The notes under the pieces: generated by a model
The model's database searches: none
The model's input: only the letters and a program-made list of their open reading frames with translations
What the model was told of the DNA's origin: nothing
Made by a program: the position numbers and the translations under genes
Part shown: positions 7,709 through 59,160 of the stretch, one piece after another
Position numbering within the stretch: position 1 is the first letter of the stretch
Layout of the letters: each line of letters opens with the position of its first letter
From: Flavobacteriales bacterium
Lineage (GTDB): Bacteria; Bacteroidota; Bacteroidia; Flavobacteriales_F; PHOS-HE28
DNA length: 64,000 nucleotides
Reading direction: 5' to 3'
NCBI GenBank assembly: GCA_046329115.1
Contig: JAXLVG010000010.1
Span: 84,482 to 148,481, forward strand

Positions 7709-7815
7709 ATCATGTGCCCATGTGTCCATGTGGGCCGCGCACGAGCGAACGCACCATGTGCCCATAGAAGCATGCCCGGATGGGCACATGCGCACATGGA
7801 GACATGGGCACATGT
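7709..7815. promoter_or_regulatory. array of CATGTGCCCATG / CATGGGCACATG palindromic motifs in the divergent pgk-holB intergenic region
   Basis: ATGTGCCCAT at 7712 and 7756; its reverse complement ATGGGCACAT at 7780 and 7804; related half-sites (catgtggg, gcacatgg, catgcccgg) in between. 7756..7789 is itself a near-perfect inverted repeat with a 14-bp spacer. Confidence 0.5.
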
Positions 7816-43433: not shown

Positions 43434-43546
43434 AACCACAGAGGCCACACAGAACACAGAGAGATCCACATCCCACCCGCACACGCCCAAAGCCTCACAC
43501 GCGTGCATCGCGCATTGCCTCTGTGACCTCTGTGGCCTCTGTGGTT
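43434..43546. repeat. palindromic intergenic repeat element, CACAGAG-heptamer family, copy 1
   Basis: Left arm aaccacagaggccacacagaacacagagag, right arm cctctgtgacctctgtggcctctgtggtt, ~55-bp spacer. Lies between the aminotransferase and C-N hydrolase genes. Confidence 0.8.
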
Positions 43547-43557
43547 GATCGATCGAC

Positions 43558-44532
43558 ATGAAACCCTTCTCCATCGCCGGCATCCAGATGCGCACCAGCG
43601 CCGCCTACCCCAACGTGGAGGCGATGAAGACCAAGCTGGACCTGCTCATGGCCATCTACCCGTGGGTGGACATGGTGATGTTCAGTGAGCTGTGCGCTTA
43701 CGGCCCGCACATCCAGCATGCCCAGCCGGTGCCCGGCGAGTTCGAACAGGAGATGTGCGCGATGGCCGCCAAACACGGGATCTGGCTGCTGCCCGGCAGC
43801 ATCTTCGAGAAGAGGGACGGCAAGGTGTACAACACCGCGAGCGTGATCGATCCCGAAGGCAGTGTGGTGACGCGCTACCGCAAGATGTTCCCCTTCTATC
43901 CGTACGAGGTGGGCGTCACCGGAGGCGATCAGTTCTGCGTGTTCGACGTGCCGGATGTGGGCCGCTTCGGCGTGAGCATCTGCTACGACATGTGGTTCCC
44001 CGAGACCACGCGCACCCTGGCCGTGATGGGCGCCGAGGTGATCCTGCATCCCACGCTCACCGGCACCATCGACCGCGACATCGAGCTGAGCATCGCGCGT
44101 ACCAGCGCCGCGGTGAACCAGTGCTACTTCTTCGACATCAACGGGCTCGACGCAGGCGGCAGCGGTCGCAGCATCGTGTGCGGTCCGGAGGGGCGGGTGA
44201 TCTACCAGGCCGACGTGAACGAGGAGTTCATCCCGATCGAGATCAACCTGGAGAAGGTGCGCCGCAGCCGCGAGCTGGGCGTGCTGCGTCTGGGCCAGCC
44301 GCTGAAGAGCTTCCGCGACCGGCCGGTGGATTTCGGCATCTACACCCCCGGCGTGAAGCACCCTGCGCTCGAGAGCCTGGGTCCGCTGATCAAGCCCGCG
44401 CGCGTGCAGGAACTGAGCGAGCTGGAAGTGAAGGACGAAACGCGCAGCCCGCACGAGCCGCCGAAGCATGACCTGTCCCGCCACAGCGGGATCATCACCT
44501 CGTTCCGACCGCCGAGCGAACAAACCGAGTGA
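43558..44532 (+). CDS. carbon-nitrogen hydrolase family protein (nitrilase/amidase superfamily)
   Basis: 324 aa. Catalytic E-K-C triad context (FSELCAYG, RYRKMFP, GVSICYDMWFPE). Confidence 0.85.
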   Translation: MKPFSIAGIQMRTSAAYPNVEAMKTKLDLLMAIYPWVDMVMFSELCAYGPHIQHAQPVPGEFEQEMCAMAAKHGIWLLPGSIFEKRDGKVYNTASVIDPEGSVVTRYRKMFPFYPYEVGVTGGDQFCVFDVPDVGRFGVSICYDMWFPETTRTLAVMGAEVILHPTLTGTIDRDIELSIARTSAAVNQCYFFDINGLDAGGSGRSIVCGPEGRVIYQADVNEEFIPIEINLEKVRRSRELGVLRLGQPLKSFRDRPVDFGIYTPGVKHPALESLGPLIKPARVQELSELEVKDETRSPHEPPKHDLSRHSGIITSFRPPSEQTE

Positions 44533-45017
44533 CCATGGGAAGCCTTGCCGGACAACGCCACATCAAGCTGAAGGACTTCGTCAGCTGGTTCGAGATCCCC
44601 GTGTACGACATCCGTCGTGCTGCGCGGTTCTATGGCACCCTCTACAACATGGAGATGGAGGTGAGCGTGAACGGGGAGTTCGCCATGGCCTACTTCCCCG
44701 CCGACAAGGGCATCGGGGGCGCGTTGATCTACGGTCCGGGCTGCGTGCCCAACGACACCGGCACGCTCGTGTACCTCAACGCAGGGAACGACCTGGACGG
44801 CATCCTGAGCCGCGTGGAGCTCGCGGGCGGCCGCGTGATCATGCCAAGGACCCTGATCAGCGAGGAGGCCGGCTGGTTCGCCCTTTTCATCGATTGCGAG
44901 GGCAACCGTGTCGCGTTGCACGAAGGCACGGCCACCAAGGCTCCGGCCAAGCCCGCCACCAAGCCTGCGGTGAAGAAGGCCCCCGCGAAAAAGGCGGCCC
45001 CGGGCAGGAAGCGCTGA
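44529..45017 (+). CDS. VOC (glyoxalase/bleomycin-resistance fold) family protein with a C-terminal Lys/Ala/Pro-rich tail
   Basis: GTG at 44529, ATG at 44535. VOC-like beta-alpha-beta-beta-beta core, followed by ATKAPAKPATKPAVKKAPAKKAAPGRKR. Confidence 0.65.
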   Translation: MTMGSLAGQRHIKLKDFVSWFEIPVYDIRRAARFYGTLYNMEMEVSVNGEFAMAYFPADKGIGGALIYGPGCVPNDTGTLVYLNAGNDLDGILSRVELAGGRVIMPRTLISEEAGWFALFIDCEGNRVALHEGTATKAPAKPATKPAVKKAPAKKAAPGRKR

Positions 45018-45029
45018 GGCCGCGAGCCC

Positions 45030-48000
45030 TCAGGCCGTGACCACGCGGGCCTCGACCTTCCTGCGCTTGCGCCCGAAGCGGAACCCCGACACCTTCTCCA
45101 TCAACCGGGTCATGATGTAGTACATCGCCGGCACGATGAAGAGGGTGAGGATGAGCGAGCTGGTGAGCCCGCCGATGATCACCCAGGCCATGCCGTTCTT
45201 CACCTCGGCGCCGTCGCCGCTGGCCAACGCGATGGGCAGCATGCCGAAGATCATCGCCACGGTGGTCATGAGGATCGGGCGCAAACGCTCGCGACCCGCC
45301 TCCACCAGGGACTCGATCAGCCCCATGCCCTCGCGCCGCAGGTGGTTGGCGAAGTCGACGATGAGGATGCCGTTCTTGCTAACCAGGCCCAGCAGCATGA
45401 TGAGGCCCACGATCGCGAAGATGCTCAGGGGCTGCATCGAGAGCGCCAGGGCGAGGAAGGCGCCCACCAGCGCCACCGGGATGGAGAAGAGCACCACGAA
45501 GGGATAGAGCGCGTTCTCGTACAGCGCCACCATGATCAGGTACACGAGCAGGATGCCGAGCACGAGCGCCAGGCCCAGGCTGCCGAAGGCCTCGCCCTGG
45601 TTCTTCGCGTCGCCGAGGTAATCGATGATGATGCCGGGAGGCAGCTGCTCCCGGGCCATGGCCTTCTGGATCTCGGCCACGATGGTGCCGCTGGGGCGGC
45701 CCACGGCCGCGCTGTTGATGGTGATGCTGTTCAGGCGGTCGGTGCGTTGCAGCACGCTGTTGCCGAGCGTCTCGTACACATCGGCGAGCTGATCCAGCCG
45801 CACCGTGGCACCGCGGGCGTTCGTCACCATCAGGCCACGCACGCTCTGCACGTCCTGGCGGTCGGCCTGGTCCAGCCGCACGTTGATCGGGTACTCCTCA
45901 CCGGCCTCCTTGAACTTGAAGCGGTCGTTGCCACGGAAGGCGGTCTGCACCGCGATGCCGATGTCGTTGCTGGTGAAGCCGAGCGTGCCCATGCGGTCCT
46001 GGTCCAGGCGCACCTTCACCTCGGGCTTCGGACTGCGGGTGCTGAACTGCACATAGTCCGTGCCGGGCGTGCCCTCGGTGATGCGTTTCACGATGCGGGC
46101 GGCCTTCCACAGGCTGTCCATCTCCACCCCCTTCACCGCGATCTGGATCGGGGTCTGCGCGCTGCCGGTGATGTTGGTCTGCGTCACCGTCACCTTGATG
46201 CCGGGGATGGCGCCCAGTTCATCGCGCAGGAGGGTGCCGAACTGCTCCGAGGTGATCCGGCGGTCGTGCTTCGGCACCAACTTCACGTTGATCTCCGAGA
46301 GGTTGGCGTTCGCGCTCCCCGCAGCACCGCGCTGTCCGCTCTGGGTGCCCACGTTGGTGAAGGCGTCGATCACCTCGGGATACTTGAGGATCACGCGTTC
46401 GGCGGCCAGCGTGAGGCGGTCGGTCTCCGCAAGCGAGGCTTGGGGCGCGGTCTCGAGCTGCACCAGGAACTCGCCACGGTCGCTGGGCGGAATGAAGGTT
46501 GCGCCGATGAAACCCGCGGGCACCAGCGCGATGGCGGCGATGAGGAGCGCGAGGATGGCGGACAATACATAGCGTTTGCGACGAAGTGCCTTGCCCAAGG
46601 CGCGGCCATACCAGTCCTGCAGGGCGGTCACCCCGCGTTCGAAGGTCAGGCTGAAGCGGCCCCAGAGGGTGCCGGTGGTGAGATGCTCGAGCCTGCCCCA
46701 GCGCGAGGCGAGCAGCGGCGTGAGGGTGAAGGCCACCACCAGGCTCATGAGGGTGCTGATCACCACCACCAGGGAGAACTCGCGCAGGATGTTGCCGATG
46801 AGACCGCCGGTGAGCGCCAGGGGCAGGAACACCACCACGTCCACCAAGGTGATGGCCATGGCGGTGAAGCCGATCTCGTTGCGTCCTTCCAGCGCCGCGC
46901 TCCAGCGGGTCTTGCCCATCTCCAGGTGACGGTAGATATTCTCCAGCACCACGATGCTGTCGTCCACCAGGATGCCGACCACCAGCGACAGCGCCATCAG
47001 GGTCATCAGGTTCAGCGAGAAGCCGAGGGCGTACATCAGGATGAACGTGGGGATCATGGCGCTGGGCAGGGCCACCAGCACGAAGAGCGAGCTGCGAACG
47101 CTGTGCAGGAAGAGCAGCATCACCAGGCCCACGATGAGCACCGCGAGCATCAGGTCGTCCATCACGGCGTTGGCGCTGGAGAGCGTGTACAGGCTCTGGT
47201 CGATGGCGATGCGGTAGTCGAAGCCGGTGTCGGCGAGCTGCGTCTTCAGCTCGGCCAGGCGCTTCTTCACCCCCTGGCTCACCTCCACCGCGTTGGCATC
47301 GCTCTGTTTCACGATCTGCATGCCGATGCCGGGCTGCCCGTTGATGCGGTTGAAGGTGGTGGCCTCGCTTAGGCCGTCCATGACGGAGGCGACGTCCTTG
47401 AGCTGGATGCGCGAGCCGTCCGCGCCCTCGCGCACCACGGTGTTGCGCAGGTCCTCCACGGTGCCGGCGCGGGCATCGAGGTTGATGGAGAGCCGGTCGG
47501 CGCGGGTCTCCACGTTGCCAGCGGGGAAGGTGGTGCTGTTGGCGCCCACGGCCTGCGCCACCTGGGCCGGGCTGATGCCGTAGGCCTTGAGCTTGTCGTT
47601 GTCCATCACCACCTGGATCTCGCGCTGCTGCGCACCGATCAGGGTCACGCTGCCCACACCGCCCACGTTGCTGATCATGGGGGCCACGCGGTCGTCCAGC
47701 AGCTGGTACAGGTCGGCGGGCGCGAGGTTGCTGCTGATGCTCAGGCGCAGGATGGGGATCTCGTCGGTGCTGAAGCGGCGCACCACGGGATCATCGGCAT
47801 CCTCCGGCAACAGGGCGCGCACCTGGTCGATGCGGCGCTCGGCATCGCGCTGGGCGTCGTTCACATCGGTGCCCTGCTTCAGCGTGATGGTGAGGGCGGA
47901 CACCCCCTCGGTGCTGGTGCTGGTGATCTGGTCCACCCCTTCGATCGCGCTCACCGCGTCCTCGATGGGCTTGGTGAGCGTGTTCTGGACCTCCTCGGGC

Positions 48001-48164
48001 GACGCACCGCGGTAGGTGGTCTGCACCATGATCACGTTGGCCTCGAACTTGGGCAGCAGGTTGTAGTTGAGCTGCTTGTAGCTGAGGAAGCCGAACAGGA
48101 TCAAGGTGACGAAGATCACCGTGATCAGCAGCGGGCGTTTGATCGCGACTTCGGTAATGGACAT
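45030..48164 (-). CDS. efflux RND transporter permease subunit (AcrB/CzcA-like)
   Basis: The track ORF 45030..48197 starts with TTG; the ATG is at 48164 (MSITEVAIKRPLLITVIFV). ~1044 aa with 12 TM helices and two large periplasmic loops. Confidence 0.9.
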   Translation of the reverse strand: MSITEVAIKRPLLITVIFVTLILFGFLSYKQLNYNLLPKFEANVIMVQTTYRGASPEEVQNTLTKPIEDAVSAIEGVDQITSTSTEGVSALTITLKQGTDVNDAQRDAERRIDQVRALLPEDADDPVVRRFSTDEIPILRLSISSNLAPADLYQLLDDRVAPMISNVGGVGSVTLIGAQQREIQVVMDNDKLKAYGISPAQVAQAVGANSTTFPAGNVETRADRLSINLDARAGTVEDLRNTVVREGADGSRIQLKDVASVMDGLSEATTFNRINGQPGIGMQIVKQSDANAVEVSQGVKKRLAELKTQLADTGFDYRIAIDQSLYTLSSANAVMDDLMLAVLIVGLVMLLFLHSVRSSLFVLVALPSAMIPTFILMYALGFSLNLMTLMALSLVVGILVDDSIVVLENIYRHLEMGKTRWSAALEGRNEIGFTAMAITLVDVVVFLPLALTGGLIGNILREFSLVVVISTLMSLVVAFTLTPLLASRWGRLEHLTTGTLWGRFSLTFERGVTALQDWYGRALGKALRRKRYVLSAILALLIAAIALVPAGFIGATFIPPSDRGEFLVQLETAPQASLAETDRLTLAAERVILKYPEVIDAFTNVGTQSGQRGAAGSANANLSEINVKLVPKHDRRITSEQFGTLLRDELGAIPGIKVTVTQTNITGSAQTPIQIAVKGVEMDSLWKAARIVKRITEGTPGTDYVQFSTRSPKPEVKVRLDQDRMGTLGFTSNDIGIAVQTAFRGNDRFKFKEAGEEYPINVRLDQADRQDVQSVRGLMVTNARGATVRLDQLADVYETLGNSVLQRTDRLNSITINSAAVGRPSGTIVAEIQKAMAREQLPPGIIIDYLGDAKNQGEAFGSLGLALVLGILLVYLIMVALYENALYPFVVLFSIPVALVGAFLALALSMQPLSIFAIVGLIMLLGLVSKNGILIVDFANHLRREGMGLIESLVEAGRERLRPILMTTVAMIFGMLPIALASGDGAEVKNGMAWVIIGGLTSSLILTLFIVPAMYYIMTRLMEKVSGFRFGRKRRKVEARVVTA

Positions 48165-48236
48165 GGTTCCTGTTCTGTTGAACCGCTCGGGGGTCAAAGG
48201 GCTCCGTAGCGGCCGTTCACCTGCGTTGATCGATGA

Positions 48237-49316
48237 TCAGTGCTTGCCGCTCAAGCGCACCTTGCTTCCGTCCGTGAGGTTCAGCTGGCCGCTCAGCACC
48301 ACGGTCTCACCCGCGACCAGTCCCTTCAGCACCTCCACGCGCTCGCCCACTTCTCGGCCCAGTACCAGGTCGCGGCGTGTCGCGCGCAGGTCAATGCTGT
48401 CGCCCGTCACCGCGTACACGTACGGTGTCTTGATCCCTTCCGCCAGGGCCTCCTTGGGGATGGCGAGCATGCGCACGGCCTCGCCACCGGTGAAGCGCAC
48501 GCTGACGAAGGTGCCGCTCTTCAGCGGGTGCGCCTTGCCGTTCTGCACGGCCACCTCCACCAGGTAATTGTGGCTGGCATCGCCCCGCGGGCTCACGAAG
48601 GTCACCTTGCCCTGGAAGGTCTCCCCGGGGAACACATCGCTGGTCACCGACACGGCCAGGCCCTCCTTCACACGGTAGGCATCGCGCTCGCTCACGTGCA
48701 CCCGGGCCTTCAGGCGGCTCACGTCCACCACCTCCACCACGGCCGTGTTGGCGCCCACGTACTCGCCCACCTCCACGTTCTTCGCCACCACCACGCCGGT
48801 GACCGGACTGATCACCTGGGCATCGCGGATCTGTTGACGGATCTGGTCGGTGCGTACCTGCTGGTTCCGGTAGTTGTAGTGCACCTCGTCGTAGTTCGCT
48901 TCGGGCACGGCCTTGCCCTCGAACAGGTCCTTGTAGCGCAGATCGTCCTTCCGCAGCTTCTCCAGCGCGAGTTCGGCCGCCTCCAGTTCAAGCTGCTTCT
49001 GCGCCACGTCCAGGCTGCCGAGCACCTGTCCCTTGCTCACCCGCGAACCAAGGTCCACGTTGAGGCTGGCGAGCTTGCCCTGGGCCTGCACCATCACCTT
49101 TGCATGGTCGTAGGGCTCCAGCGTGCCCGGCACGGTGAAGGTGCCTTCCACGTCGGTGATCGCGGTGGTGAAGGCGGTCACCGGGATGGCGAACCCGCTG
49201 CGGTCCACGGGCTGTTTGGCCGCGTCGAGCTTCTTCTTGTTCGCGGCCAGTTTCAGGCCGATGCCCAGGGCCAGCGCGACCAGCACAAGGGGCAACATCC
49301 ATTTACGGTTCTTCAT
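48237..49316 (-). CDS. efflux RND transporter periplasmic adaptor subunit (membrane fusion protein)
   Basis: C-terminal 359 aa of ORF 48237..49757, from ATG 49316 (MKNRKWMLPLVLVALALGIG). Coiled-coil and beta-barrel MFP domains. The upstream part of the ORF is an artefact. Confidence 0.85.
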   Translation of the reverse strand: MKNRKWMLPLVLVALALGIGLKLAANKKKLDAAKQPVDRSGFAIPVTAFTTAITDVEGTFTVPGTLEPYDHAKVMVQAQGKLASLNVDLGSRVSKGQVLGSLDVAQKQLELEAAELALEKLRKDDLRYKDLFEGKAVPEANYDEVHYNYRNQQVRTDQIRQQIRDAQVISPVTGVVVAKNVEVGEYVGANTAVVEVVDVSRLKARVHVSERDAYRVKEGLAVSVTSDVFPGETFQGKVTFVSPRGDASHNYLVEVAVQNGKAHPLKSGTFVSVRFTGGEAVRMLAIPKEALAEGIKTPYVYAVTGDSIDLRATRRDLVLGREVGERVEVLKGLVAGETVVLSGQLNLTDGSKVRLSGKH

Positions 49317-49342
49317 GGCGCCGTGGCGTCTGTGGGGTTCGA

Positions 49343-50665
49343 TCAAAGTGTCTTGGCGTAGTCGAGCAGGGTGCCCTTCGCCTTCTCCAGGTCGATCAGG
49401 GCGATGATGCGGTTGAGGTGCGAGGTGACCCAGTTGTTGCGGGCCTCCTTCAACTGGTAGTCGGCGTTCAGCAGGTCGCTGAGGGAGGCCGTGCCCTGCT
49501 GGTACTTGAGGTTGGTGTTGGCGAACACGTCCTGGGCCAGTTGCAGGTTGGACTCGTCGCTCTCCACGTTGGCATTGCTGGCGAGCAGGCGCGTGTCGGC
49601 GTTCTGGTAGTCGAGCTGGAACCCGAGGATGTTGTCGCGCTGGCGCTCGCGGGCGTTCTCCAGGGCGATGCGGCTCTGCTGGATCTGGCTGCTGCGGCGC
49701 AGACCGCTGAACACCGGCACGTTCAGCTTCAGGCCGATCGAAGCGAAGTCGTACCACGAGTTGAAGCTGGCGCCCAGATCGTTGCCTTGGGCCATTGTTC
49801 CCACGCGGCCATAGGCGCTCAGGGTGGGGATGAAGGCGTTCCGCTTGCGGCGCAGATCGATGGACTGCATGAGCACGGATTGCTCGTCGAACTGGTAACT
49901 GAGCAGGTTGGCGGGTGCGAAGGAGGTGGCACTGGGCTGGCGCATGTTCTCCGAGGTCCGCTGCGGCTCCGTCAGCTCCAACGGCTCGCTGATGGGCATG
50001 CCGATGATGCGCTTGAGGCGGGCGACCGCGAGGTCGTAATTGGCCTGGGCCACCGTGCGCTGCGAGGCGATGTTCCGCCGTGTCACCTCCACGCGGTCCA
50101 CGTCCAGTTCTTGCACCACGCCCTTCGCCAAGCGCAACTGCAGGATGGGTACCAGCGCATCGTACTGCTTCAGGTTCTCGTCGAGCAGGCGTACCTGCTC
50201 CCGGTAGGTCTGGGCCTGCGCATAGGTGTGTGCCACATCGTACACCAATTGCTCCTCCACCTGCCGGGAACGGATGTCGGCCATCGCCTGGTTCGGGCGG
50301 CTGGCCTGGATACCGTTGAGCTGCGCCACGTCCACGAGCACCTGCTCGGCCTGCAGGTTCACGTTGGTGATGTACTGGGTGCCGAACTGCACCGGCGTGG
50401 GCCGGTCGCTGAACACACCGGCCGGCAGGATGGTGGTCTGGCGCTTCAGGTTGTCGTCCAGCTGCCCGTAGCCGTTCACCTGCGGGAGGTACCCGCTCAC
50501 GGCCTCCTGGGCCTGGGCATCGGCCCGGCGCCGTTCGTTCGCGGCGATGACCATGTTCGCACTGTGCACCCGACCGTAGTCGAGGGCCTCGCGCAGTGTG
50601 AAGGCCTGCTGGGCCTGGATGACAGAGGCACCGAATAAGGCGAGGGAAAGAATGCTGCTCCTCAT
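49343..50665 (-). CDS. TolC family outer-membrane efflux protein
   Basis: 440 aa with a signal peptide (MRSSILSLALFGASVIQAQQ) and two TolC repeat halves. Confidence 0.85.
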   Translation of the reverse strand: MRSSILSLALFGASVIQAQQAFTLREALDYGRVHSANMVIAANERRRADAQAQEAVSGYLPQVNGYGQLDDNLKRQTTILPAGVFSDRPTPVQFGTQYITNVNLQAEQVLVDVAQLNGIQASRPNQAMADIRSRQVEEQLVYDVAHTYAQAQTYREQVRLLDENLKQYDALVPILQLRLAKGVVQELDVDRVEVTRRNIASQRTVAQANYDLAVARLKRIIGMPISEPLELTEPQRTSENMRQPSATSFAPANLLSYQFDEQSVLMQSIDLRRKRNAFIPTLSAYGRVGTMAQGNDLGASFNSWYDFASIGLKLNVPVFSGLRRSSQIQQSRIALENARERQRDNILGFQLDYQNADTRLLASNANVESDESNLQLAQDVFANTNLKYQQGTASLSDLLNADYQLKEARNNWVTSHLNRIIALIDLEKAKGTLLDYAKTL

Positions 50666-51105
50666 TTCACGTCCCCGGAATTGGCTGTTTCATCCATCGT
50701 GCGCAGGACCTTGAGGAAGACCGACAGGTCCTTCTCCCCGATACCGCCGAGCACCTGCGCGAAGACCTTGGAGCGCAGCTTCGAGGCCTTGCGGTGGATC
50801 TCCTGGCCCGACCTGGTCACCACCAGGATCTTCCGCCGCCGGTCGTCCGGGTCCATCTGGCGCTCGATCCAGCCGGCCTGCTCCATCTCGTCGATCTGGC
50901 GCAGCATCACGCTCTTGTCCTTCGCGAAGTGGTTGGCCAGATCCGTCTGCACCGCCCGGCTGTTGGTGAGCAGGAAATCCAGCACGCCGAACTGCGGCAG
51001 CCGCAGCTCGGATCCGTGGCTGTCCAGTTCCACGGCCATGAGGCGCACCACGCTGCGCATGGTGGTGGGCAGAAGCTGTGCGATGTCGTCCGTTAGGATG
51101 CTCAT
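50662..51105 (-). CDS. MarR family transcriptional regulator
   Basis: ORF 50662..51159. ATG at 51105 (MSILTDDIAQLLP). Winged HTH. 4-bp overlap with tolC; first gene of the efflux operon. Confidence 0.8.
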   Translation of the reverse strand: MSILTDDIAQLLPTTMRSVVRLMAVELDSHGSELRLPQFGVLDFLLTNSRAVQTDLANHFAKDKSVMLRQIDEMEQAGWIERQMDPDDRRRKILVVTRSGQEIHRKASKLRSKVFAQVLGGIGEKDLSVFLKVLRTMDETANSGDVK

Positions 51106-51113
51106 GTCGATAG

Positions 51114-51174
51114 TTGCGTTCTGCAACGGCACAAATGTATGCATTGTTGTCTTTTGCAACTATTGCTTTGTGCC
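51114..51174. promoter_or_regulatory. AT-rich operator/promoter region upstream of the marR-tolC-MFP-RND operon with nested inverted repeats
   Basis: gttgcgttctgcaacggcacaaatgtatgcattgttgtcttttgcaactattgctttgtgcc contains GTTGC/GCAAC and GGCACAAA ... TTTGTGCC. Divergent from the decarboxylase gene. Confidence 0.4.
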
Positions 51175-51376
51175 TCTATTTGGGATGGACGGTTCCACAG
51201 GGCCCTCCAGTGGCGTATGCCGGCCATGGGTCCATGCGCCTCCCCCATGGGTCAACGGCGCCACGACCCCCTGACCCTCAAACGGTCCCACACGTATGTT
51301 CGCCCTTGGACCGCACCCGATCGATGGCGGTACCGCTTCCCTATCTTGTCCCGCACGGTCCCAGCCTGCCTTGCCC

Positions 51377-54136
51377 ATGCCCAACGCCACGGCCGTCCAC
51401 ACCCGCTCCCACTACAACGCCGCCCGGCGCCGGTCCCACACCTGGGACCAGTTGAAGCTGGCCTGCATGGACCTCGATGAAGGCCGTGGCACCCCGCAGG
51501 AGGTCGAGGCCATCCTGAAGGACCTCCACGCCATCGAGCTGTATTGGGCCTTCCCCGGCCGGGAAACGGTGCAGCAACTGAGTGACATGCTCCGCAGCAA
51601 GGAGCACCACGGGCTTCATCTTGCGGTGAACCACGTGGTGCGCATGCTCAGCAGCGGCTCGTTCCGCAGCGACACGGTGGCCATGCTCGATCCCCGCTCG
51701 GGGCGCAACGAGCTGCTCGCCGATGAGGCCGAAAAGCCGCGCCCCAACTACTTCGAGGTGCTTTTCGTCGACGACATCGACGACGTGGAGGAGGAGGCGC
51801 TGAAACAGAAGCTGAAGAAGGTCCGCGACAAGAGCGACGAGTTCGTGTACGACACCGTAGTGGTGCGCACCGTGCAGGACGCACTGATCGCACTCCTCTT
51901 CAACCACAACATCCAGGCGGTGGTGGTACGCTTCGGGGTGCCCTACCCCAGCAGCAACCACAAAGGCGTGCTGCGGGAGTTCACCCGTGCCATCGACGCG
52001 CTCAACCCCGGCGACATCGGCCGCGCCAACATGGGCCCCTACCTGGGCCGCATCTGCCGCTGGTTCCGCCCCGAGGTGGACCGCTACTACGTGACCGACA
52101 CGCCGGTGGACGGGCTGAAGGACACCACGCTGGCCACCTTCAAGCGCATCTTCTACCGCACCGAGGACCTCACCGAGTTGCACCTCACCATCCTGCGCGG
52201 CACGATGGAGAAGTTCGAGACGCCCTTCTTCACCGCGCTGAAGGACTACAGCCGCCGGCCCATGGGGGTGTTCCACGCCATGCCCATCAGCCGCGGCAAC
52301 AGCGTGTTCAAGAGCCGGTGGATCCAGGACTTCGGCGAGTTCTACGGCCGCAATCTCTTCCTGGCCGAGACCAGCGCCACCACCGGCGGCCTCGATTCGC
52401 TACTGCAGCCCACCGGTCCGCTGAAGAAGGCGCAGGAGCTGGCCGCGCGCGCCTTCGGTAGCCAGCACACTTTCTTCGCCACCAACGGCACCAGCACCAC
52501 CAACAAGATCGTGGTGCAGGCGCTGGTGGAGCCCGGCGACATCGTGCTCATCGACCGCGACTGCCACAAGAGCCACCACTACGGCATGGTGCTGAGCGGC
52601 GCGTACCCGGTGTACCTGCACAGCTACCCGCTCACCAAGTACAGCATGTACGGCGCGGTGCCGCTGTCGCACATCCGCGAACAGCTCTGCGCGCTGCGGA
52701 AAGGCGGGCGGCTGGACAAGGTGAAGATGCTGCTGCTCACCAACAGCACTTTCGACGGCGTGGTGTACAACGTGGAGCGCGTGATGGAGGAGGTGCTCGC
52801 CATCAAGCCCGACATCGTGTTCCTGTGGGACGAGGCCTGGTGGGCCTTCGCCCGCTTCAGCTACGTGCTGCGCCAGCGCACCGCGATGCACGTGGCCGCC
52901 AAGCTCGCCCGCAAGTACCGCACGCCCGAGTACCGCGCCGAATACGCCGCGCACATCAAGGGCCTGAAGAAGGGCGAGGAGCCGCGCCTGCCCGACCCCG
53001 ACAAGGTGCGCATCCGCGTGTACGCCACGCAGAGCACGCACAAGACGCTCACCTCGCTGCGCCAGGGCAGCATGATCCACATCTGGGACGAGGACTTCGT
53101 GAAGAAGAGCGAGGCCAGCTTCCACGAGGCGTACATGACGCACACCAGCACCAGCGCCAACTACCAGATCCTCGCCAGCATGGACGTGGGCCGGCGGCAG
53201 GTGGAGTTCGAGGGCTTCGAGCTGGTGGAGAAGGCCATCGAGCTGGGGCTGCTGCTGCGGCGTACCATCCGCGAGAACCCGCGGCTGAACAAGTGGTTCG
53301 ACATCATCACCATCGGCGAGCTCATTCCCAGTGAATACCGGCAGAGCGGACTGGACAGCTACTATCGCCGCGACCAGGGCTGGAACGCGATCGAGAAGGC
53401 GTGGGCCACGGACGAGTTCGCGGTGGACCCCACCAAGATCAACCTCTACACGGGCAAGACCGGGATCGACGGGGACACCTTCAAGAACAAGTTCCTGATG
53501 GACAAGCACCAGATCCAGATCAACAAGACCTCGCGGAACTCGGTGCTCTTCATGACCAACATCGGCACGACGCGGGGCTCGCTCGCGTACCTCACCAAGG
53601 TGCTGCTGCACATCGCGGACGAGCTGGAGGCGCGCAACGCCGGTTTCGAGCACGACGACAAGCGCGCACATCTGGCCCGGATCCGTGCGCTCACCGAGGA
53701 GATCCCGCCCCTGCCCGATTTCAGCAGCTTCCACCGCAGTTTCCAAGGCCAGCCCGGCGTGCCCGGCGGTGACCTCCGTTCCGCGTACTTCCTCGCCTAC
53801 GACGAAAAGCGATGCCGGCACGTGAAGCTCGACGCCGCGCTGGCCGAGATGAAACAGGGGGGCGAGCTGGTATCCGCCTCCTTCGTGATCCCCTACCCAC
53901 CGGGCTTCCCCGTGCTGGTGCCGGGGCAGGTCATCAACAAGGAGATCATCGACTTCCTCATCGCCATCGACGTGAAGGAGATCCACGGCTACCGCCCGGA
54001 GCTGGGCCTGCGCGTGTTCACCGATGCAGCACTGGGAAGGCAACGGACCACGACGGCCATGGGGGGGATGAAGCAAATGACAAGCTCCAAGTCCTACGTG
54101 TCAAGCCTCAAGACATCCGCACGCAAGAAGAAGTAA
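51377..54136 (+). CDS. Orn/Lys/Arg decarboxylase family protein, large AAT-fold type (~920 aa)
   Basis: ORF 51296..54136. ATG at 51377 (MPNATAVHT). PLP-binding STHK motif (YATQSTHKTLTSLRQGS) and DRDCHKSHH block typical of CadA/AdiA/SpeF-type decarboxylases. Long N-terminal wing-like region. Confidence 0.8.
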   Translation: MPNATAVHTRSHYNAARRRSHTWDQLKLACMDLDEGRGTPQEVEAILKDLHAIELYWAFPGRETVQQLSDMLRSKEHHGLHLAVNHVVRMLSSGSFRSDTVAMLDPRSGRNELLADEAEKPRPNYFEVLFVDDIDDVEEEALKQKLKKVRDKSDEFVYDTVVVRTVQDALIALLFNHNIQAVVVRFGVPYPSSNHKGVLREFTRAIDALNPGDIGRANMGPYLGRICRWFRPEVDRYYVTDTPVDGLKDTTLATFKRIFYRTEDLTELHLTILRGTMEKFETPFFTALKDYSRRPMGVFHAMPISRGNSVFKSRWIQDFGEFYGRNLFLAETSATTGGLDSLLQPTGPLKKAQELAARAFGSQHTFFATNGTSTTNKIVVQALVEPGDIVLIDRDCHKSHHYGMVLSGAYPVYLHSYPLTKYSMYGAVPLSHIREQLCALRKGGRLDKVKMLLLTNSTFDGVVYNVERVMEEVLAIKPDIVFLWDEAWWAFARFSYVLRQRTAMHVAAKLARKYRTPEYRAEYAAHIKGLKKGEEPRLPDPDKVRIRVYATQSTHKTLTSLRQGSMIHIWDEDFVKKSEASFHEAYMTHTSTSANYQILASMDVGRRQVEFEGFELVEKAIELGLLLRRTIRENPRLNKWFDIITIGELIPSEYRQSGLDSYYRRDQGWNAIEKAWATDEFAVDPTKINLYTGKTGIDGDTFKNKFLMDKHQIQINKTSRNSVLFMTNIGTTRGSLAYLTKVLLHIADELEARNAGFEHDDKRAHLARIRALTEEIPPLPDFSSFHRSFQGQPGVPGGDLRSAYFLAYDEKRCRHVKLDAALAEMKQGGELVSASFVIPYPPGFPVLVPGQVINKEIIDFLIAIDVKEIHGYRPELGLRVFTDAALGRQRTTTAMGGMKQMTSSKSYVSSLKTSARKKK

Positions 54137-54139
54137 GCC

Positions 54140-55843
54140 ATGAGCAAGAAGACCAAGGCGACCGCGAAGAAGACCCCGGCCCGCCGCAAGGCCGCCAAGA
54201 AAGCCCCCGCCAAGCGCACGGCACGCAAGGCTGCGAAGCCCGGAACGAGCCGACCGGTGAAGAAGACCGCTACGAAGAAGAAGGCGCCGGTCAGGAAGCT
54301 GGTAGTGCGCAAGAAGAGCGTTTCGCGACGCCAGCCCAACGGGCGGGTCGAGGCCCGGCGTGGCAGCGCCGCACTCAAGGGCATCAGCGACATCCGGCGC
54401 TTCTTCCACCGCAACGAGGTGCCGCTCTATTTCATCAGCGCCACCAACTTCAACCTGCTGGGCGCGGACGAGTGGATCAAGGGCTTCAAGTTCATCACCT
54501 ACATCGACTGCTTCGACGGGCTGCACCCCAACCTGATGAGCCCGCGCACCGAGGAACCGCACGAGGAGTTCCAGAGCATCGAGGACATCAACAACTACCT
54601 GCTCACGCACAGTGAGGTGCGCGACTTCATCGAGAGCAGGAGGATGAGCGGGAAGACCGCAGGGAAGGCCCTATTCCTGATGTTCGATGAGAAGACCGAA
54701 GCGCTGGCGAAGAAGGCCGGGCTCGAGGTGATCTTCCCGCCCGCCAAGCTGCGCAGCTGGCTGGACAACAAGGTGAACACCAACCGCGTGGCCGAGAAAG
54801 CCGGCGTGCCTTGCGTGCCCTATGTGCTCAGTCCCGTGAAGAACTACGCGCACCTCCTGCAGGTGGCCGCGAAGGGCAAGCTCGGCAGCGACCTGGTGGT
54901 GCAGACCCCCTACGGCGACAGCGGCCACACCACATTCTTCATCAAGAACGAGGCGGAGTACGCCAAGTACGCCAAGGAGATCGAGGCGGAGAAGGAGTGC
55001 AAGATCATGAAGCGCATCAACTGCCGCGGTGCGGCCATGGAGGCCTGCGTCACGCGGCACGGCACCATCGTGGCCCCGTTGATGACGGAGCTGGTGGGCT
55101 TCAAGGAGCTGACCCCGTACAAGGGCGGCTGGTGCGGCAACGAGATCTACGCCGACACCTTCACGCCGGAGATCCGTGCGAAGGCCCGCCGCTATGCGCG
55201 CAAGTTCGGCGACCAGCTGCTGAAGGAGGGCTACAAGGGCTACTTCGAGCTCGACTTCCTGATCGACACCGACAACGGCGAGATCTACCTCGGCGAGCTG
55301 AACCCGCGCGTGACCGGCGCGAGCTCCATCACCAACCACGCCGCCTTCGCCCTGGCGGACGCGCCGCTCCACCTCTTCCATACGCTGGAATGGATGAACG
55401 TGCCGTACGAGCTGAGCGTGAACGCGCTGAACCGGCGTTGGAGCGATGAGCGCAACATCGACAGCTGGGGCCAGATGGTGATCAAGTACACCGCCGATGA
55501 TGTGCAGCGCGTGACCGACGCGCCCCGCAGCGGCATCTGGCGCATGCGCGACGACGGCAGCATCTACTTCTGGCGCATGGACACGCACCGTCGCTATGTG
55601 GAGAAGGACAACGAGGCCTTCTTCCTGCGGATCACGCGTCCCGGCGACTGGTTCTACGAAGGTGCCGACATGGGCATCCTGGTGATGCGCGACCGCATGA
55701 TGACCGACGACTTCCAGCTCACCGAACGCGCCAAGAAGTGGCTGGCGGCCATCCGCGGGCAGTTCAAGAGCATGGCCCCCGGAGCGCATGGCACCAACGG
55801 GCATGAGCACCTGCTGGAGGTGGGCGGGTTCAAGATGATGTAA
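54140..55843 (+). CDS. ATP-grasp domain protein (carboxylate-amine ligase type) with a ~70 aa Lys/Arg/Ala-rich N-terminal tail
   Basis: 567 aa. N-terminus MSKKTKATAKKTPARRKAAKKAPAKRTARKAAKPG... ATP-grasp core with a CPSase-like ELNPRVTGASS motif. Starts 4 bp after the decarboxylase stop. Confidence 0.7.
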   Translation: MSKKTKATAKKTPARRKAAKKAPAKRTARKAAKPGTSRPVKKTATKKKAPVRKLVVRKKSVSRRQPNGRVEARRGSAALKGISDIRRFFHRNEVPLYFISATNFNLLGADEWIKGFKFITYIDCFDGLHPNLMSPRTEEPHEEFQSIEDINNYLLTHSEVRDFIESRRMSGKTAGKALFLMFDEKTEALAKKAGLEVIFPPAKLRSWLDNKVNTNRVAEKAGVPCVPYVLSPVKNYAHLLQVAAKGKLGSDLVVQTPYGDSGHTTFFIKNEAEYAKYAKEIEAEKECKIMKRINCRGAAMEACVTRHGTIVAPLMTELVGFKELTPYKGGWCGNEIYADTFTPEIRAKARRYARKFGDQLLKEGYKGYFELDFLIDTDNGEIYLGELNPRVTGASSITNHAAFALADAPLHLFHTLEWMNVPYELSVNALNRRWSDERNIDSWGQMVIKYTADDVQRVTDAPRSGIWRMRDDGSIYFWRMDTHRRYVEKDNEAFFLRITRPGDWFYEGADMGILVMRDRMMTDDFQLTERAKKWLAAIRGQFKSMAPGAHGTNGHEHLLEVGGFKMM

Positions 55844-55845
55844 AT

Positions 55846-55925
55846 GCGAGTGGCGAGTAGTGAGTGGCGAGTAGTGAGTGGTAGCTGCAGCGGCAGACTC
55901 ACCACTCACTACTCGCCACTCGCCA
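55846..55925. repeat. long GC-rich hairpin built from 7-bp units (gagtggc/gagtagt) between the ATP-grasp and C45 genes
   Basis: gcgagtggcgagtagtgagtggcgagtagtgagtgg [tagctgcagcggcagac] tcaccactcactactcgccactcgccactcc. The arms pair over ~27-34 bp, with no T-run after the stem. Confidence 0.7.
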
Positions 55926-55938
55926 CTCCTCGAACGAA

Positions 55939-56940
55939 GTGAGAGCGATGTACGTCCACCTGAAACTCGTCAAGGAACCCTGGCCCAGCGACCGCTGGCA
56001 GAAGTTCTTCGACCATGCCTGGCCCCTGTTCCGCATCTGGTACGAGAGCGAGGGACTGGAGAAACGCCCCGACCAGGCGACCTGCCGGAACATGCTGGAG
56101 CTGCACATGCCGGAACTGATCCCGGTGTACAACAGCCTGTGCCGCCTGGCGAACAACGACGATGTCGCCTCGCGCTTCCTGAGCATGTGGAACCCGCCGC
56201 CCTACATGGCCGGGTGCTCGCAGGTGGCGTGGACCAAGGGCGCGCCCACCCTCATCCGCAACTACGACTTCGACCCGCGCTACTTCGATGGGCGCCTCCG
56301 CTACACCGAGTACTGCAAGCCCGTCATCGGCATCCAGGACAGCGCCTGGGGCCTGCTCGACGGCATGAACGTAGACGGCCTGGCCGTATCGCTGGCCTTC
56401 GGTGGCCGCAAGGTGTGGGGCTCCGGCTTCGGCATCCCGCTGGTCATCCGCTACGTGCTGGAGACCTGCAGCACCACCGATGAAGCGTGCGCTGTGCTTT
56501 CCCGCATCCCGGTGCACATGGGGTACAACGTCACCGTGGTGGATAAGAGCGGCAAGTACGCCACCGTGTACATGAACCACGACAGGCCGGCCCAGGTGAT
56601 CTACCAGGCCGTGGCCTGCAACCACCAGCACCAGGTGGAGTGGGACGAGTACGCCGCCTTCACCCACACCATCGAGCGCAAGCACCACCTGGAGCACAGC
56701 ATCGCGCAGCCCAAGCTCACTCGGGCCGCGCTCATCAAGCAGTTCCTCAAGCCACCGCTGTACAGCCAGCAATACCTGCGCGGCTTCGGCACGCTGTACA
56801 CCGCAGCCTACGACGTGGCCAAGGGCCGGGTGCAGATCATCTGGCCGGACAAGCAGGTGGAGGCGAGCTTCACGCGTTTCGAGGAGCAGGAGGTGCAGGT
56901 GGTGCTGTTGAGGCCGGTGGGGAGGTACTTGGCGAAGTAG
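55939..56940 (+). CDS. C45 family Ntn-hydrolase (acyl-CoA:6-aminopenicillanic-acid acyltransferase-like)
   Basis: GTG at 55939, ATG at 55948 (MYVHLKL). Probable nucleophile Cys in MAGCSQVAW. ~330 aa, the size of C45 autoproteolytic acyltransferases. Confidence 0.6.
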   Translation: MRAMYVHLKLVKEPWPSDRWQKFFDHAWPLFRIWYESEGLEKRPDQATCRNMLELHMPELIPVYNSLCRLANNDDVASRFLSMWNPPPYMAGCSQVAWTKGAPTLIRNYDFDPRYFDGRLRYTEYCKPVIGIQDSAWGLLDGMNVDGLAVSLAFGGRKVWGSGFGIPLVIRYVLETCSTTDEACAVLSRIPVHMGYNVTVVDKSGKYATVYMNHDRPAQVIYQAVACNHQHQVEWDEYAAFTHTIERKHHLEHSIAQPKLTRAALIKQFLKPPLYSQQYLRGFGTLYTAAYDVAKGRVQIIWPDKQVEASFTRFEEQEVQVVLLRPVGRYLAK

Positions 56941-56968
56941 TGCTCGGGACGGAGAGTTATCATTGTTT

Positions 56969-57055
56969 GAACCACAGAGGCCACAGAGAACACAGAGGAC
57001 AGCGTTCAACACCACTCATGGCATTTCTCTATGCCCTCTGTGCTCTCTGTGGTTC
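56969..57055. repeat. palindromic intergenic repeat element, CACAGAG-heptamer family, copy 2
   Basis: gaaccacagaggccacagagaacacagagg ... cctctgtgctctctgtggttc. Directly upstream of, and overlapping, the GxxExxY track ORF. Confidence 0.8.
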
Positions 57056-57081
57056 AGTTGGATGAGCGCGGCGAATGCACA

Positions 57082-57492
57082 GCGATGAACTCCACCATGA
57101 ACAAGTCCTGGTCATACAATGAGCTCAGTGGAGAGATCATTGGCGCTGCGATCGAAGTGCATCGGGAGCTCGGTCCTGGGTTGCTCGAAAAGGTCTATGA
57201 GGAGGCGCTTTGTCATGAACTACGACTGCGCGGCATCCCGTTCAGGCGTCAGGTCCTTGTGCCTGTTCTTTACAAGGGTGCTGAGCTGAAGGCTCCCTGT
57301 AAATGTGATCTCTGGGTTGCCGGAATGATCATCGTGGAGAACAAAGCGGCATCCGCGTTGACCCCGATCGATGACGCACAATTATTGGGATACCTGAAGC
57401 TCATGGACCAAAGGCTCGGCCTCCTGATGAACTTCAATGTCAAGTTCCTGAAGCAAGGCGTCCGCCGTATTGTGAACGGTTCGTTGGAATGA
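57082..57492 (+). CDS. GxxExxY family protein (PD-(D/E)XK-like small protein)
   Basis: ORF 57031..57492. The first 17 codons lie within a repeat element. Likely start MNSTMNKSWSYNELSGEIIGAAIEVHRELGPGLLEKVYEEAL at 57082 or 57094 (G-x-x-E-x-x-Y signature). GC is clearly lower than in flanking genes. Confidence 0.65.
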   Translation, partial: AMNSTMNKSWSYNELSGEIIGAAIEVHRELGPGLLEKVYEEALCHELRLRGIPFRRQVLVPVLYKGAELKAPCKCDLWVAGMIIVENKAASALTPIDDAQLLGYLKLMDQRLGLLMNFNVKFLKQGVRRIVNGSLE

Positions 57493-57533
57493 TCACTTAG
57501 GTCTTAAAGCGGTTCACTGACTAAGACCCCGGC

Positions 57534-57571
57534 ATTCCTCTGTGCCCTCTGTGCTCTCTGTGGTTGATCCA
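57534..57571. repeat. CACAGAG-heptamer family, copy 3 (single arm)
   Basis: cattcctctgtgccctctgtgctctctgtggttgatcc, directly downstream of the GxxExxY gene. Gives the same spurious MPSVLSVV peptide in the ORF track as copy 2. Confidence 0.75.
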
Positions 57572-57602
57572 AGGCCGCTTCAGCGGCCCATAAATTCGCA
57601 CC

Positions 57603-59048
57603 ATGCCCGCCACGCTCACCTCCCTCTTCACCCCCGCCAACCTGATCAACGGCTCCTGGTCGTTCGAGGGCGATGGCACCTTCAACACGGTCGTGGACAA
57701 GTACCACGGCACCGAGTTGGCCCGGATACCCCACGCCACCGAGGCGCAGATGGAGGAAGCGATCGCCGCGGCATATGCCAGCCGTGACGCGCTCCGGAAG
57801 ACGAGCGCCGGGGAGCGCAGCGCGAAGCTGGATGCGCTTGCTGACCGGATCGCGAAGCATGAAGCGGAGGTCGTCGAGCTGATGGTGAAGGAGGCCGGCA
57901 AGCCGATCGGTGCGGCACGGATCGAGGTCGCGCGCAGCATCACCACGGTGCGGACAGCCGCAGCGGAGGCCCTGCGTTTCAGCGGTGAGGTGACGCCGAT
58001 GGACTTCGGCGCCGGTGCAGGGAAGACCGCCTTCACGAAGCGCTTCCCCATCGGCGTTATCGCCGCTATCACGCCCTTCAACTTCCCGCTCAACCTCGTG
58101 CTGCACAAGGTGGCCCCGGCCATGGCAGTGGGCTGCCCCGTGGTGCTGAAGCCCTCACCCCAGGCGCCGCTCTGCTCCTACGTGCTCGCACGCTTCATGG
58201 AGGAGATCGGGTGGCCGAAGGGCGCCTTCCACGTACTGATGTGCGGTGTGCCCGTGGCCGAGAAGCTGGTGAAGGACGAGCGCGTGGCCATGCTCAGCTT
58301 CACCGGCAGCGACAAGGTGGGCTGGCACCTGAAGAACATCTGCGGCAAGAAGAAGCTCGCCCTGGAGCTCGGTGGCAACGCGGCGGTGATCGTGGACGCC
58401 GGCGTGGACCTCGCCGCAGCGGCGAAGACCGTGGCCGCCGGAGCGAACGCGTACGCGGGCCAGACCTGCATCAGCACACAGCGCATCTATGCGGTGAAGA
58501 GCGTCTCCGCGACTTTCCGTGACCTGCTCGTGAAGGAGTACGCAGCGCTGAAGGCCGGTGATCCGAGCGATACGCAAGTGACGGTGGGCCCCATCATCGA
58601 CAAGGGCCATTTCGAGCGCATCGGCAGCTGGGTGGATGAAGCGGTGAAAGGCGGCGCCACCCTGCTCGCGGGTGGCAAGCCGGTCGATGCGGATCGCAAC
58701 GTTTACGCCCCCACCCTGCTCACCGACACGAAGAACAGTATGCGCGTGAGCTGCGCCGAGGTCTTCGGGCCGGTCGCGGTGATCGAGGAGGTGGCCGACT
58801 TCGACGAGGCCATCGCCCGGGTGAACGACAGCACCTACGGCCTGCAGGCCGGCGTGTTCACCGACTCTGTGGCGCACATGAAGAAGGCCCACGAGGAGCT
58901 GGAGGTGGGCGGCGTGATCATCGGCAATGTGCCGGGCTTCCGCATTGACAGCATGCCCTACGGCGGCATCAAGGACAGCGGCCTGGGGCGTGAAGGCCTG
59001 AAGTACGCGATGGAGGAGATGAGCGAGCCGCGGTTGCTGGTATGCTGA
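57603..59048 (+). CDS. NAD(P)-dependent aldehyde dehydrogenase family protein
   Basis: 481 aa. Catalytic Cys region (GQTCISTQRIY), ELGGNAAVIV, and the Glu-containing LELGG block. Confidence 0.9.
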   Translation: MPATLTSLFTPANLINGSWSFEGDGTFNTVVDKYHGTELARIPHATEAQMEEAIAAAYASRDALRKTSAGERSAKLDALADRIAKHEAEVVELMVKEAGKPIGAARIEVARSITTVRTAAAEALRFSGEVTPMDFGAGAGKTAFTKRFPIGVIAAITPFNFPLNLVLHKVAPAMAVGCPVVLKPSPQAPLCSYVLARFMEEIGWPKGAFHVLMCGVPVAEKLVKDERVAMLSFTGSDKVGWHLKNICGKKKLALELGGNAAVIVDAGVDLAAAAKTVAAGANAYAGQTCISTQRIYAVKSVSATFRDLLVKEYAALKAGDPSDTQVTVGPIIDKGHFERIGSWVDEAVKGGATLLAGGKPVDADRNVYAPTLLTDTKNSMRVSCAEVFGPVAVIEEVADFDEAIARVNDSTYGLQAGVFTDSVAHMKKAHEELEVGGVIIGNVPGFRIDSMPYGGIKDSGLGREGLKYAMEEMSEPRLLVC

Positions 59049-59160
59049 GGTTCACCACAGAGGCACGGAGGGCACAGAGAAATACATCCGCTTGGGCGGT
59101 GTCCGATCTCATAGTCCGATCCGCATTCCTCTGTGTGCTCTGTGGCCTCTGTGGTTCACC
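59043..59160. repeat. palindromic intergenic repeat element, CACAGAG-heptamer family, copy 4
   Basis: ggttcaccacagaggcacggagggcacagag ... cattcctctgtgtgctctgtggcctctgtggttcaccc. Lies between the ALDH gene and the lpxD 3' end; the right arm reaches the lpxD stop codon. Confidence 0.8.

Follow-up and report, generated by a model that had tools for sequence, protein, structure and literature searches.

Hairpin cassettes with a predicted PD-(D/E)XK nuclease gene, and gene-less hairpins of the same family, in intergenic DNA of a Flavobacteriales bacterium

A 64,000-nucleotide stretch of DNA from a Flavobacteriales bacterium (assembly GCA_046329115.1, contig JAXLVG010000010.1, positions 84,482 to 148,481; hereafter the window, with its own numbering) contains palindromic intergenic elements built from the heptamers CACAGAG and CTCTGTG. 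An earlier note, made from the sequence of the window, had described four copies, which raises the question of what kind of element they are. We found that two of the four sites belong to one complete cassette, in which a gene assigned to the GxxExxY (PDDEXK_3) nuclease family lies between two inverted arms, and that the other two, hairpins A and D, are gene-less, decaying derivatives of the same family. On balance, these elements are probably small selfish hairpin cassettes that have the design of the intervening sequences of 23S rRNA and reside in ordinary intergenic DNA.

All four sites were present at the coordinates reported, and 18 of the 19 occurrences of CACAGAG/CTCTGTG in the window fall within them. 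A search with the two-unit pattern CTCTGTGNNCTCTGTGG, allowing up to 3 mismatches, gave 16 matches where 3.3 were expected, and none of 100 shuffles reached 16. The repeat had been described as a plain heptamer, but the true period is 8-9 bp, that is, a heptamer core with 1-2 spacer bases; in the window it is 9 bp, made up of a 7-bp core and two variable bases. An inverted-repeat search of the window recovered the arms of hairpin A (43434-43461 and 43519-43546, 89% complementary) and a second pair at 56968-56997 and 57027-57056 (83% complementary). It also recovered a pair that the earlier note had missed, at 56963-56999 and 57536-57572 (37 nt, 81% complementary, 536 nt apart). Because gene order and this inverted repeat pair it with the left arm of what was counted as copy 2 (56969-56999), the supposed single arm at 57534-57571 is the right end of a cassette of approximately 600 bp. 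The hairpin called copy 2 is formed by that left arm and an internal right arm, R'. Similarly, the open reading frame (ORF) beginning MPSVLSVV, which had been called spurious, is a 5' extension (from 57031) of the real PDDEXK_3 gene that reaches into R', and a 153-amino-acid gene call for the nuclease starts inside this arm. Arms of this kind thus explain one class of spurious ORFs and of wrongly called gene starts.

Each copy forms a long hairpin on both strands, with z-scores of -3.7 to -6.4, and in the RNA minimum-free-energy fold of 56960-57580 the outer arms pair around the nuclease gene. Their description as non-coding palindromes in 3' intergenic spaces, distinct from clustered regularly interspaced short palindromic repeats (CRISPR), also held. 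Copy 4 (hairpin D) spans the interval from the stop codon of an aldehyde dehydrogenase (Aldedh) gene (59046-59048) to that of lpxD (59156-58, minus strand), and the earlier note was right that it overlaps the lpxD stop. Hairpin A has the two-base (NN) spacers, GC and AA, of the left arm of the cassette, and in the left arm of hairpin D one nucleotide is deleted and one unit reads CACGGAG. The core, the AACC/GGTT terminus and the NN spacers of both hairpins are those of the cassette, which for A lies 13 kb away. The positions are collected in Table 1.

Table 1. Parts of the cassette and the two gene-less hairpins in the window.
Feature	Position	Strand	Remarks
Complete cassette (left arm, decaying internal right arm, GxxExxY nuclease gene, right arm)	56966..57572	+	37-nt inverted repeat
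Left arm, GAAC + CACAGAG GC CACAGAG AA CACAGAG G	56969..56999	+	
Internal right arm R', duplicate of outer right arm	57027..57056	+	2/35 positions differ from 57534-57571
GxxExxY / PDDEXK_3 nuclease gene, 135 aa	57085..57492	+	PF13366, TIGR04256
Right arm, CTCTGTG CC CTCTGTG CT CTCTGTG GTT	57534..57571	+	Inverted repeat, RNA fold
Gene-less hairpin A	43434..43546	.	Aminotransferase stop codon 43428-30 to CN-hydrolase start codon 43558
Gene-less hairpin D	59049..59160	.	Between convergent Aldedh and lpxD stop codons

Judged from its sequence, the gene of the cassette is a member of the GxxExxY/PDDEXK_3 family. The protein exceeded the curated cut-offs of Pfam PF13366 (E = 8.6e-39, 133 bits vs a cut-off of 22) and NCBIfam TIGR04256 (137 bits vs 35), and its D...ExK and QxxxY motifs are intact. 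Across 73 homologues D75 and K87 are invariant, and within the second motif (Q99xxxY103) Q99 is nearly and Y103 fully invariant; E85 is invariant in a five-sequence alignment. No solved structure matches the protein by sequence. An AlphaFold2 model (predicted local distance difference test score, 92.7) has as its nearest solved folds lambda exonuclease and Cas4, both as weak matches. The predicted product is a minimal RecB/Cas4-type PD-(D/E)XK enzyme, with a length of about 125 amino acids across cassettes. Purifying selection acts on the gene, for which the ratio of nonsynonymous to synonymous divergence (dN/dS) is 0.04 at a dS of 1.3-1.6, and also on the cores of the units in its arms. The family is very large, nearly all of at least 8,000 candidates having been scored as members, and a 2012 survey of the superfamily listed its function as 'Unknown' and noted many horizontal transfers (PMC3424549). 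The G+C content at third codon positions of the nuclease gene is 0.66 compared with about 0.9 in neighbouring genes. The gene is nevertheless syntenic in relatives with saturated dS, which means that this odd composition has persisted.

The association was also examined in reverse, beginning with PDDEXK_3 genes from metagenomes, where we took the best 80 of 587 confirmed stretches and assessed 69 genes. A flanking inverted repeat was present at 63 of the 69 genes compared with 18 of 140 shifted controls from the same loci. Tandem CRCNRAG units occurred in both arms at 50 of the 69 and at none of the 140 controls. The unit differs by locus (CACAGAG, CGCAGAG, CACGGAG, CGCGGAG, CACGAAG, CGCAAAG, CGCCGAG, CGCCAAG, CACAGAT) and its period was 9 bp in 114 cases and 8 bp in 84, with three units in most arms. 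A full copy is approximately 460-600 bp long, with two inverted arms of about 28-37 bp that typically hold three 8-9-bp CRCNRAG units each. The distance from the arms to the start and stop codons is 4-25 nt in most cassettes.

The arms are linked to the gene and have defined ends that lack a target-site duplication. The outer-end consensus of 109 arms is TT(C/A)AC followed by CRCNRAG units, and conservation ends at position -5. Direct repeats of 3-6 nt, sought at six boundary offsets, were found in 0-2 of 52 cases, the same as in the control. The elements lie just after stop codons. Only 16 of 52 short hairpins were inside an ORF compared with 81% of random segments, and at least one gene 3' end adjoined 30 of the 33 hairpins that had ORFs within 400 nt on both sides. 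The nuclease gene was co-oriented with its upstream neighbour at 40 of 47 loci, which fits read-through expression.

To see how widely the arms occur, one genome per species was scanned with CTCTGTGNNCTCTGTGGTT, which yielded at least 120 loci. The matches were in Planctomycetota, Acidobacteriota, Chloroflexota, Cyanobacteria, Bacteroidota, Desulfobacterota, Nitrospirota, Firmicutes, Proteobacteria, Chlamydiae and two archaea, in genomes with 31-73% G+C. By our own arithmetic, 17 specified bases would give approximately 70 matches by chance in the genome collection. A third unit was present on 87 of 135 arms (chance, below 1%), and a partner arm lay within 300 nt of 59 of 135 arms compared with 14 of 405 control 28-mers. 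This excess indicates that at least 83 of the 120 listed loci, those with a third unit or a partner arm, are genuine, and the elements therefore form, as the earlier note had supposed, a dispersed family that is not confined to the window. Among the matches listed, several metagenome-assembled genomes (MAGs) hold at least 2-5 loci each. GxxExxY genes sometimes occur several to a contig (L108 and L205; L numbers denote individual loci). Carriage by phages was rejected, since only two viral loci matched.

Hairpin sizes (n = 58) were bimodal, with 44 at 62-163 nt and four gene-bearing ones at 453-673 nt. No remnants of the nuclease gene were detectable in the short hairpins with a hidden Markov model of the family. 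The spacers of copies within one genome were unrelated, and the arms alone were conserved between copies. Clustering of ORFs within 900 nt of 146 arms showed that PDDEXK_3 is the sole family exclusive to the inner side. The layout of left arm, gene and right arm was seen in L113, L108 (twice), L081, L030 and L063. A composite form with the extra arm R' was found in the window, L113 and L081 and represents a minority, approximately 3-5 of 63 cassettes.

Some arms had other arrangements. In L022 (100-700) a repeat of about 187 bp is arrayed in tandem, and every copy opens with a CACAGAG left arm; in L086 (1114-1230) three tandem right arms are spaced 45-49 nt apart. Arms can therefore also form part of satellite-like arrays. 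On the reverse strand of L109 (2110-2560) hairpins are nested, with the units CACAGAG and CGCCAAG and a ACCACAAAAA/TTTTTGTGGTT pair.

We then compared the window with its relatives. Its closest relatives are MAGs labelled Flavobacteriales bacterium, so that the parallel with cyanobacteria drawn in the earlier note is not supported, and the closest homologues of the nuclease also carry Flavobacteriales labels. The order AAT-family gene, PDDEXK_3, Aldedh is kept in L201 and L205 (protein 90% identical in both), in L216 (76%), in L219 (73%) and in L206-215 (67%). Even at a dS above 1, the window, L201 and L205 agree in all six unit cores, and the spacer bases differ. R' has decayed in L201, and decayed orthologues of hairpin D were found in L206, L209 and L210. 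Hence the arms flanking the gene are maintained and the gene-less copies are not. In more distant relatives the intact units of both arms read CGCAGAG instead of CACAGAG, and the left-arm spacers GC and AA are retained in L206-215.

At four sites we observed re-use, with different hairpins and cassettes taking the same place. Upstream of the AAT gene, the window and the outgroup L230 have a hairpin of 7-nt units (GAGTGGC), and in the closer relative L205 exactly this position is taken by another PDDEXK_3 cassette, one with CGCAACG arms. Between the aminotransferase and CN-hydrolase genes, where the window has hairpin A, relatives have hairpins with other units (GTTG/CAAC), and some tandem-unit hairpin is present there in every relative. 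At the AAT|Aldedh junction, L230 (17274-18548) has a Fic-domain gene, with no visible arms, in the place of the window cassette. In the SIS-LplA interval, the cassettes of L227 and L222 differ and point in opposite directions; nucleotide identity between the two loci is 66% for the cassettes and 80% for the flanks.

The closest known design is that of the 23S rRNA intervening sequences found in Leptospira, Coxiella and Brucella, which have an S23p ORF encoding a four-helix bundle. In Coxiella the intervening sequence is 428-444 nt long with a 28-bp terminal stem, its S23p ORF is preceded by three GACAGAT heptamers in tandem, and it is a substrate of RNase III; such sequences are regarded as selfish, and their origin and mobility have been open questions since about 1990 (PMC4990558). 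The two are alike in total size (about 430-600 nt), in terminal inverted repeats (37 nt and 81% complementary in the window, compared with the stem of about 28 bp in Coxiella), in tandem heptamers on the start-codon side (GACAGAT three times in Coxiella, CACAGAG three times in the window and CACAGAT in L145) and in having one small ORF within the loop. They differ in that intervening sequences are inserted in helix 25 or 45 of 23S rRNA, whereas the window elements lie between protein-coding genes, and in that the S23p ORF (PF05635) is replaced by a PD-(D/E)XK nuclease gene (PF13366) as the cargo. In addition, the window family has gene-less miniature copies that are dispersed. Since they lie outside rRNA and carry other cargo, we set the window elements apart from the 23S intervening sequences and do not count them as members.

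If these are selfish cassettes, the nuclease might act in cis or in trans on the arms, recognizing them either as duplex units or as a DNA hairpin or cruciform, and the resulting breaks might be repaired from another arm-bearing copy. Through such repair, hairpin sites would exchange or receive copies of cargo and hairpins, much as in homing and in either orientation. Once transcribed, the two arms would pair into a long stem, which RNase III could cut by analogy with the rRNA intervening sequences; the relative L229 has an rnc gene. Such cutting would remove the insert from the host mRNA and limit expression of the nuclease.

More tentatively, and with less than an even chance of being right, we suggest that GxxExxY genes, and probably S23p and small GIY-YIG genes, could be cargo of one unrecognised class of prokaryotic mobile element. 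It would have tandem-unit inverted arms and move or be exchanged between intergenic hairpin sites without target duplication, and the classical 23S intervening sequences would be the case that landed in rRNA. Genes of PF05635 (23S_rRNA_IVP) with tandem-unit inverted arms were found in L172 (3649-4199) and L189 (1296-1931), with GATTTTA and CGAAAT units, and a small GIY-YIG gene in L034 (6580-6950) is flanked by a 25-30-nt inverted repeat that opens with two GAGCG units. Another small GIY-YIG gene, in L120, lies between two direct copies (3560-3600 and 3960-3990) of a short REP-like hairpin motif, GTCATTSCCSG...CSGGSAATCCAG. In the literature on GxxExxY/PF13366, CACAGAG, REPIN/RAYT and S23p we found no description of these arms. 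To place these nuclease genes in cassettes of the intervening-sequence type with defined termini joins two puzzles, the function of the GxxExxY family and the origin and mobility of the 23S intervening sequences, into one testable system, in which cassettes leave miniature hairpins and replace one another at the same sites, and in which the enzyme, the substrate and the ends are obvious.

Several points weigh against considering the elements as selfish cassettes. Movement of the cassettes is something that we infer and did not see directly, and the activity and substrate of the nuclease are predictions from its sequence, and its matches to solved folds are weak (E > 0.02). The window cassette is old, as is hairpin D, and both are found in synteny in relatives; they could be domesticated or simply tolerated. 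Re-use of sites could stem from allelic exchange via the flanking genes and not from targeting. Rfam detected no rRNA, either across the window or at 10 cassette loci. The uniform type of unit within each element is left unexplained by pairing in one register or by slippage. Finally, our copy number, three elements (one cassette and two gene-less hairpins), covers the 64-kb window alone.

The main rival reading takes the elements for regulatory hairpins of the host: stems kept as sites of mRNA processing, stability or insulation (for example RNase III sites) that lie between cistrons or convergent genes, with the nuclease gene domesticated or a passenger and nothing mobile now. We consider this rather unlikely. 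In its favour, the cassette and hairpin D have orthologues over a long divergence, selection on the gene and arm cores is strong, every relative has a tandem-unit hairpin at the aminotransferase|CN-hydrolase site, the elements are located at gene 3' ends and there is a precedent in the cutting of intervening-sequence stems by RNase III. By contrast, a host function does not readily explain why the same arm sequence and terminus occur at 31-73% G+C across phyla and in archaea, why different cassettes in opposite orientations occupy one site, why a cassette replaced a hairpin in the closer relative or why gene-less copies decay. It also fits poorly with the lack of G.U bias in the arms and of a U-tract terminator at the elements.

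This last point relates to whether the arms function as DNA or as RNA. In 63 cassettes the mismatches between arms were symmetric (74 G.T vs 83 A.C), with no bias toward wobble pairs on the sense strand, so that no selection for a sense-RNA stem is visible. An RNA-level element was rejected on this ground and on the results from Rfam, which gave no match at the gathering score; at E <= 10 there were only chance matches far below gathering scores, to microRNA-precursor models and a few small nucleolar and long noncoding RNA models. At the elements no intrinsic terminator, U-tract terminator or sigma-70 promoter was found.

A second possibility, which we think improbable, is that the gene-less hairpins grew in place by slippage and template-switch 'quasipalindrome correction', in which case there was no transposition and the likeness to the cassette arms is secondary. 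The many intergenic unit types (GTTG/CAAC, GAGTRGY, CATGTG), the variable number of units and the homogenization of units across an element, not in one pairing register, are what such growth might produce. However, hairpins A and D share their core, terminus and NN spacers with the cassette, the same 17-nt terminus recurs across phyla and the NN spacers are not homogenized as slippage predicts.

The uniformity of the units was examined further. Units are uniform over the whole element, with a purity of 0.96-0.97 at core positions 2 and 5, and position 4 of the core and the spacer bases vary freely. At positions 2 and 5 the identity between left and right arms was the same in register, with a one-unit shift and between neighbouring units, and was far above the identity between elements. 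Four candidate causes were rejected. Base-pair covariation in the same register was set aside since at the variable positions shifted registers and neighbouring units show just as much identity, and slippage since the NN spacers are not homogenized. Decay of CpG as the cause of the concerted switch from CGCAGAG to CACAGAG does not agree with an observed/expected CpG ratio of 0.99 in the window, and the specificity of the protein does not determine the type of unit, because proteins that are 73-81% identical carry different units. Concordance of units between nearest neighbours was 0.54 compared with 0.32 after shuffling, which fits simple co-inheritance.

The earlier note had likened the elements to repetitive extragenic palindromic (REP) sequences or bacterial interspersed mosaic elements (BIMEs), which, as paired REPs (REPINs), are mobilised by a REP-associated tyrosine transposase (RAYT) of the IS200/IS605 type. 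According to PMC3733652, these are 20-40-bp imperfect palindromes tagged GTAG or CGTC at one end. There are true likenesses, namely one small enzyme gene flanked by inverted repeat copies, gene-less doublet hairpins scattered in intergenic DNA at gene 3' ends and, as described for REPIN-RAYT systems, long vertical persistence without target-site duplications. Nevertheless, this affiliation is very improbable. No Y1 transposase was found beside the arms in the at least 120 loci, and the only recurrent protein inside the arms is a PD-(D/E)XK nuclease and not an HUH Y1 enzyme. Moreover, the terminus is TT(C/A)AC without a GTAG or CGTC tag, the arms are tandem 8-9-bp units and not one 20-40-bp palindrome, and the family is spread across phyla.

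The other comparison made in the earlier note, with miniature inverted-repeat transposable elements (MITEs), stands insofar as a miniature gene-less form exists, and bacterial MITEs (Correia/NEMIS, ERIC, RUP) are also 60-160-bp intergenic inverted-repeat hairpins co-transcribed with their neighbours. That the hairpins are ordinary MITEs, deletion derivatives of an insertion sequence elsewhere that encodes a DDE transposase, with the nuclease gene as a passenger, would fit the terminal inverted repeats and the two size classes but is scarcely credible given that target-site duplications were no more frequent than in the control at any boundary offset, that there is no transposase between or beside the arms and no DDE parent, and that the spacers of same-genome copies are unrelated.

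With respect to the cassettes considered as selfish elements, free-standing homing endonuclease genes (the PD-(D/E)XK enzyme I-Ssp6803I and the GIY-YIG and HNH enzymes of phages) are comparable as small nuclease genes between conserved host genes, with re-use of sites and with presence, absence and replacement among relatives. They differ in having no conserved inverted arms and in leaving no gene-less hairpin copies. Unlike phage-borne homing genes, the cassettes are rare in viral contigs.

The genes around the elements are as follows. Hairpin A separates an aminotransferase gene (42099-43430) from a CN-hydrolase gene (43558-44532). The AAT-family gene (55939-56940) is followed by the left arm, a spacer, R', the PDDEXK_3 gene and the right arm, and then by the Aldedh gene (57603-59048), hairpin D and lpxD (minus strand, 59156-60172). 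Two further hairpins were observed in the window. A second intergenic type at 55846-55928, which has an orthologue in L230 and whose place is taken by a PDDEXK_3 cassette in L205, consists of 7-nt units, GAGTGGC/GAGTAGT (z = -9.7), and its unit class, NAGTRGY, recurs in L007 (Planctomycetaceae, 37% G+C) and L092. At 7711-7814, in what is apparently a divergent intergenic region, there is a nested hairpin of 8-nt CATGTG/CACATG units (z = -7.2).

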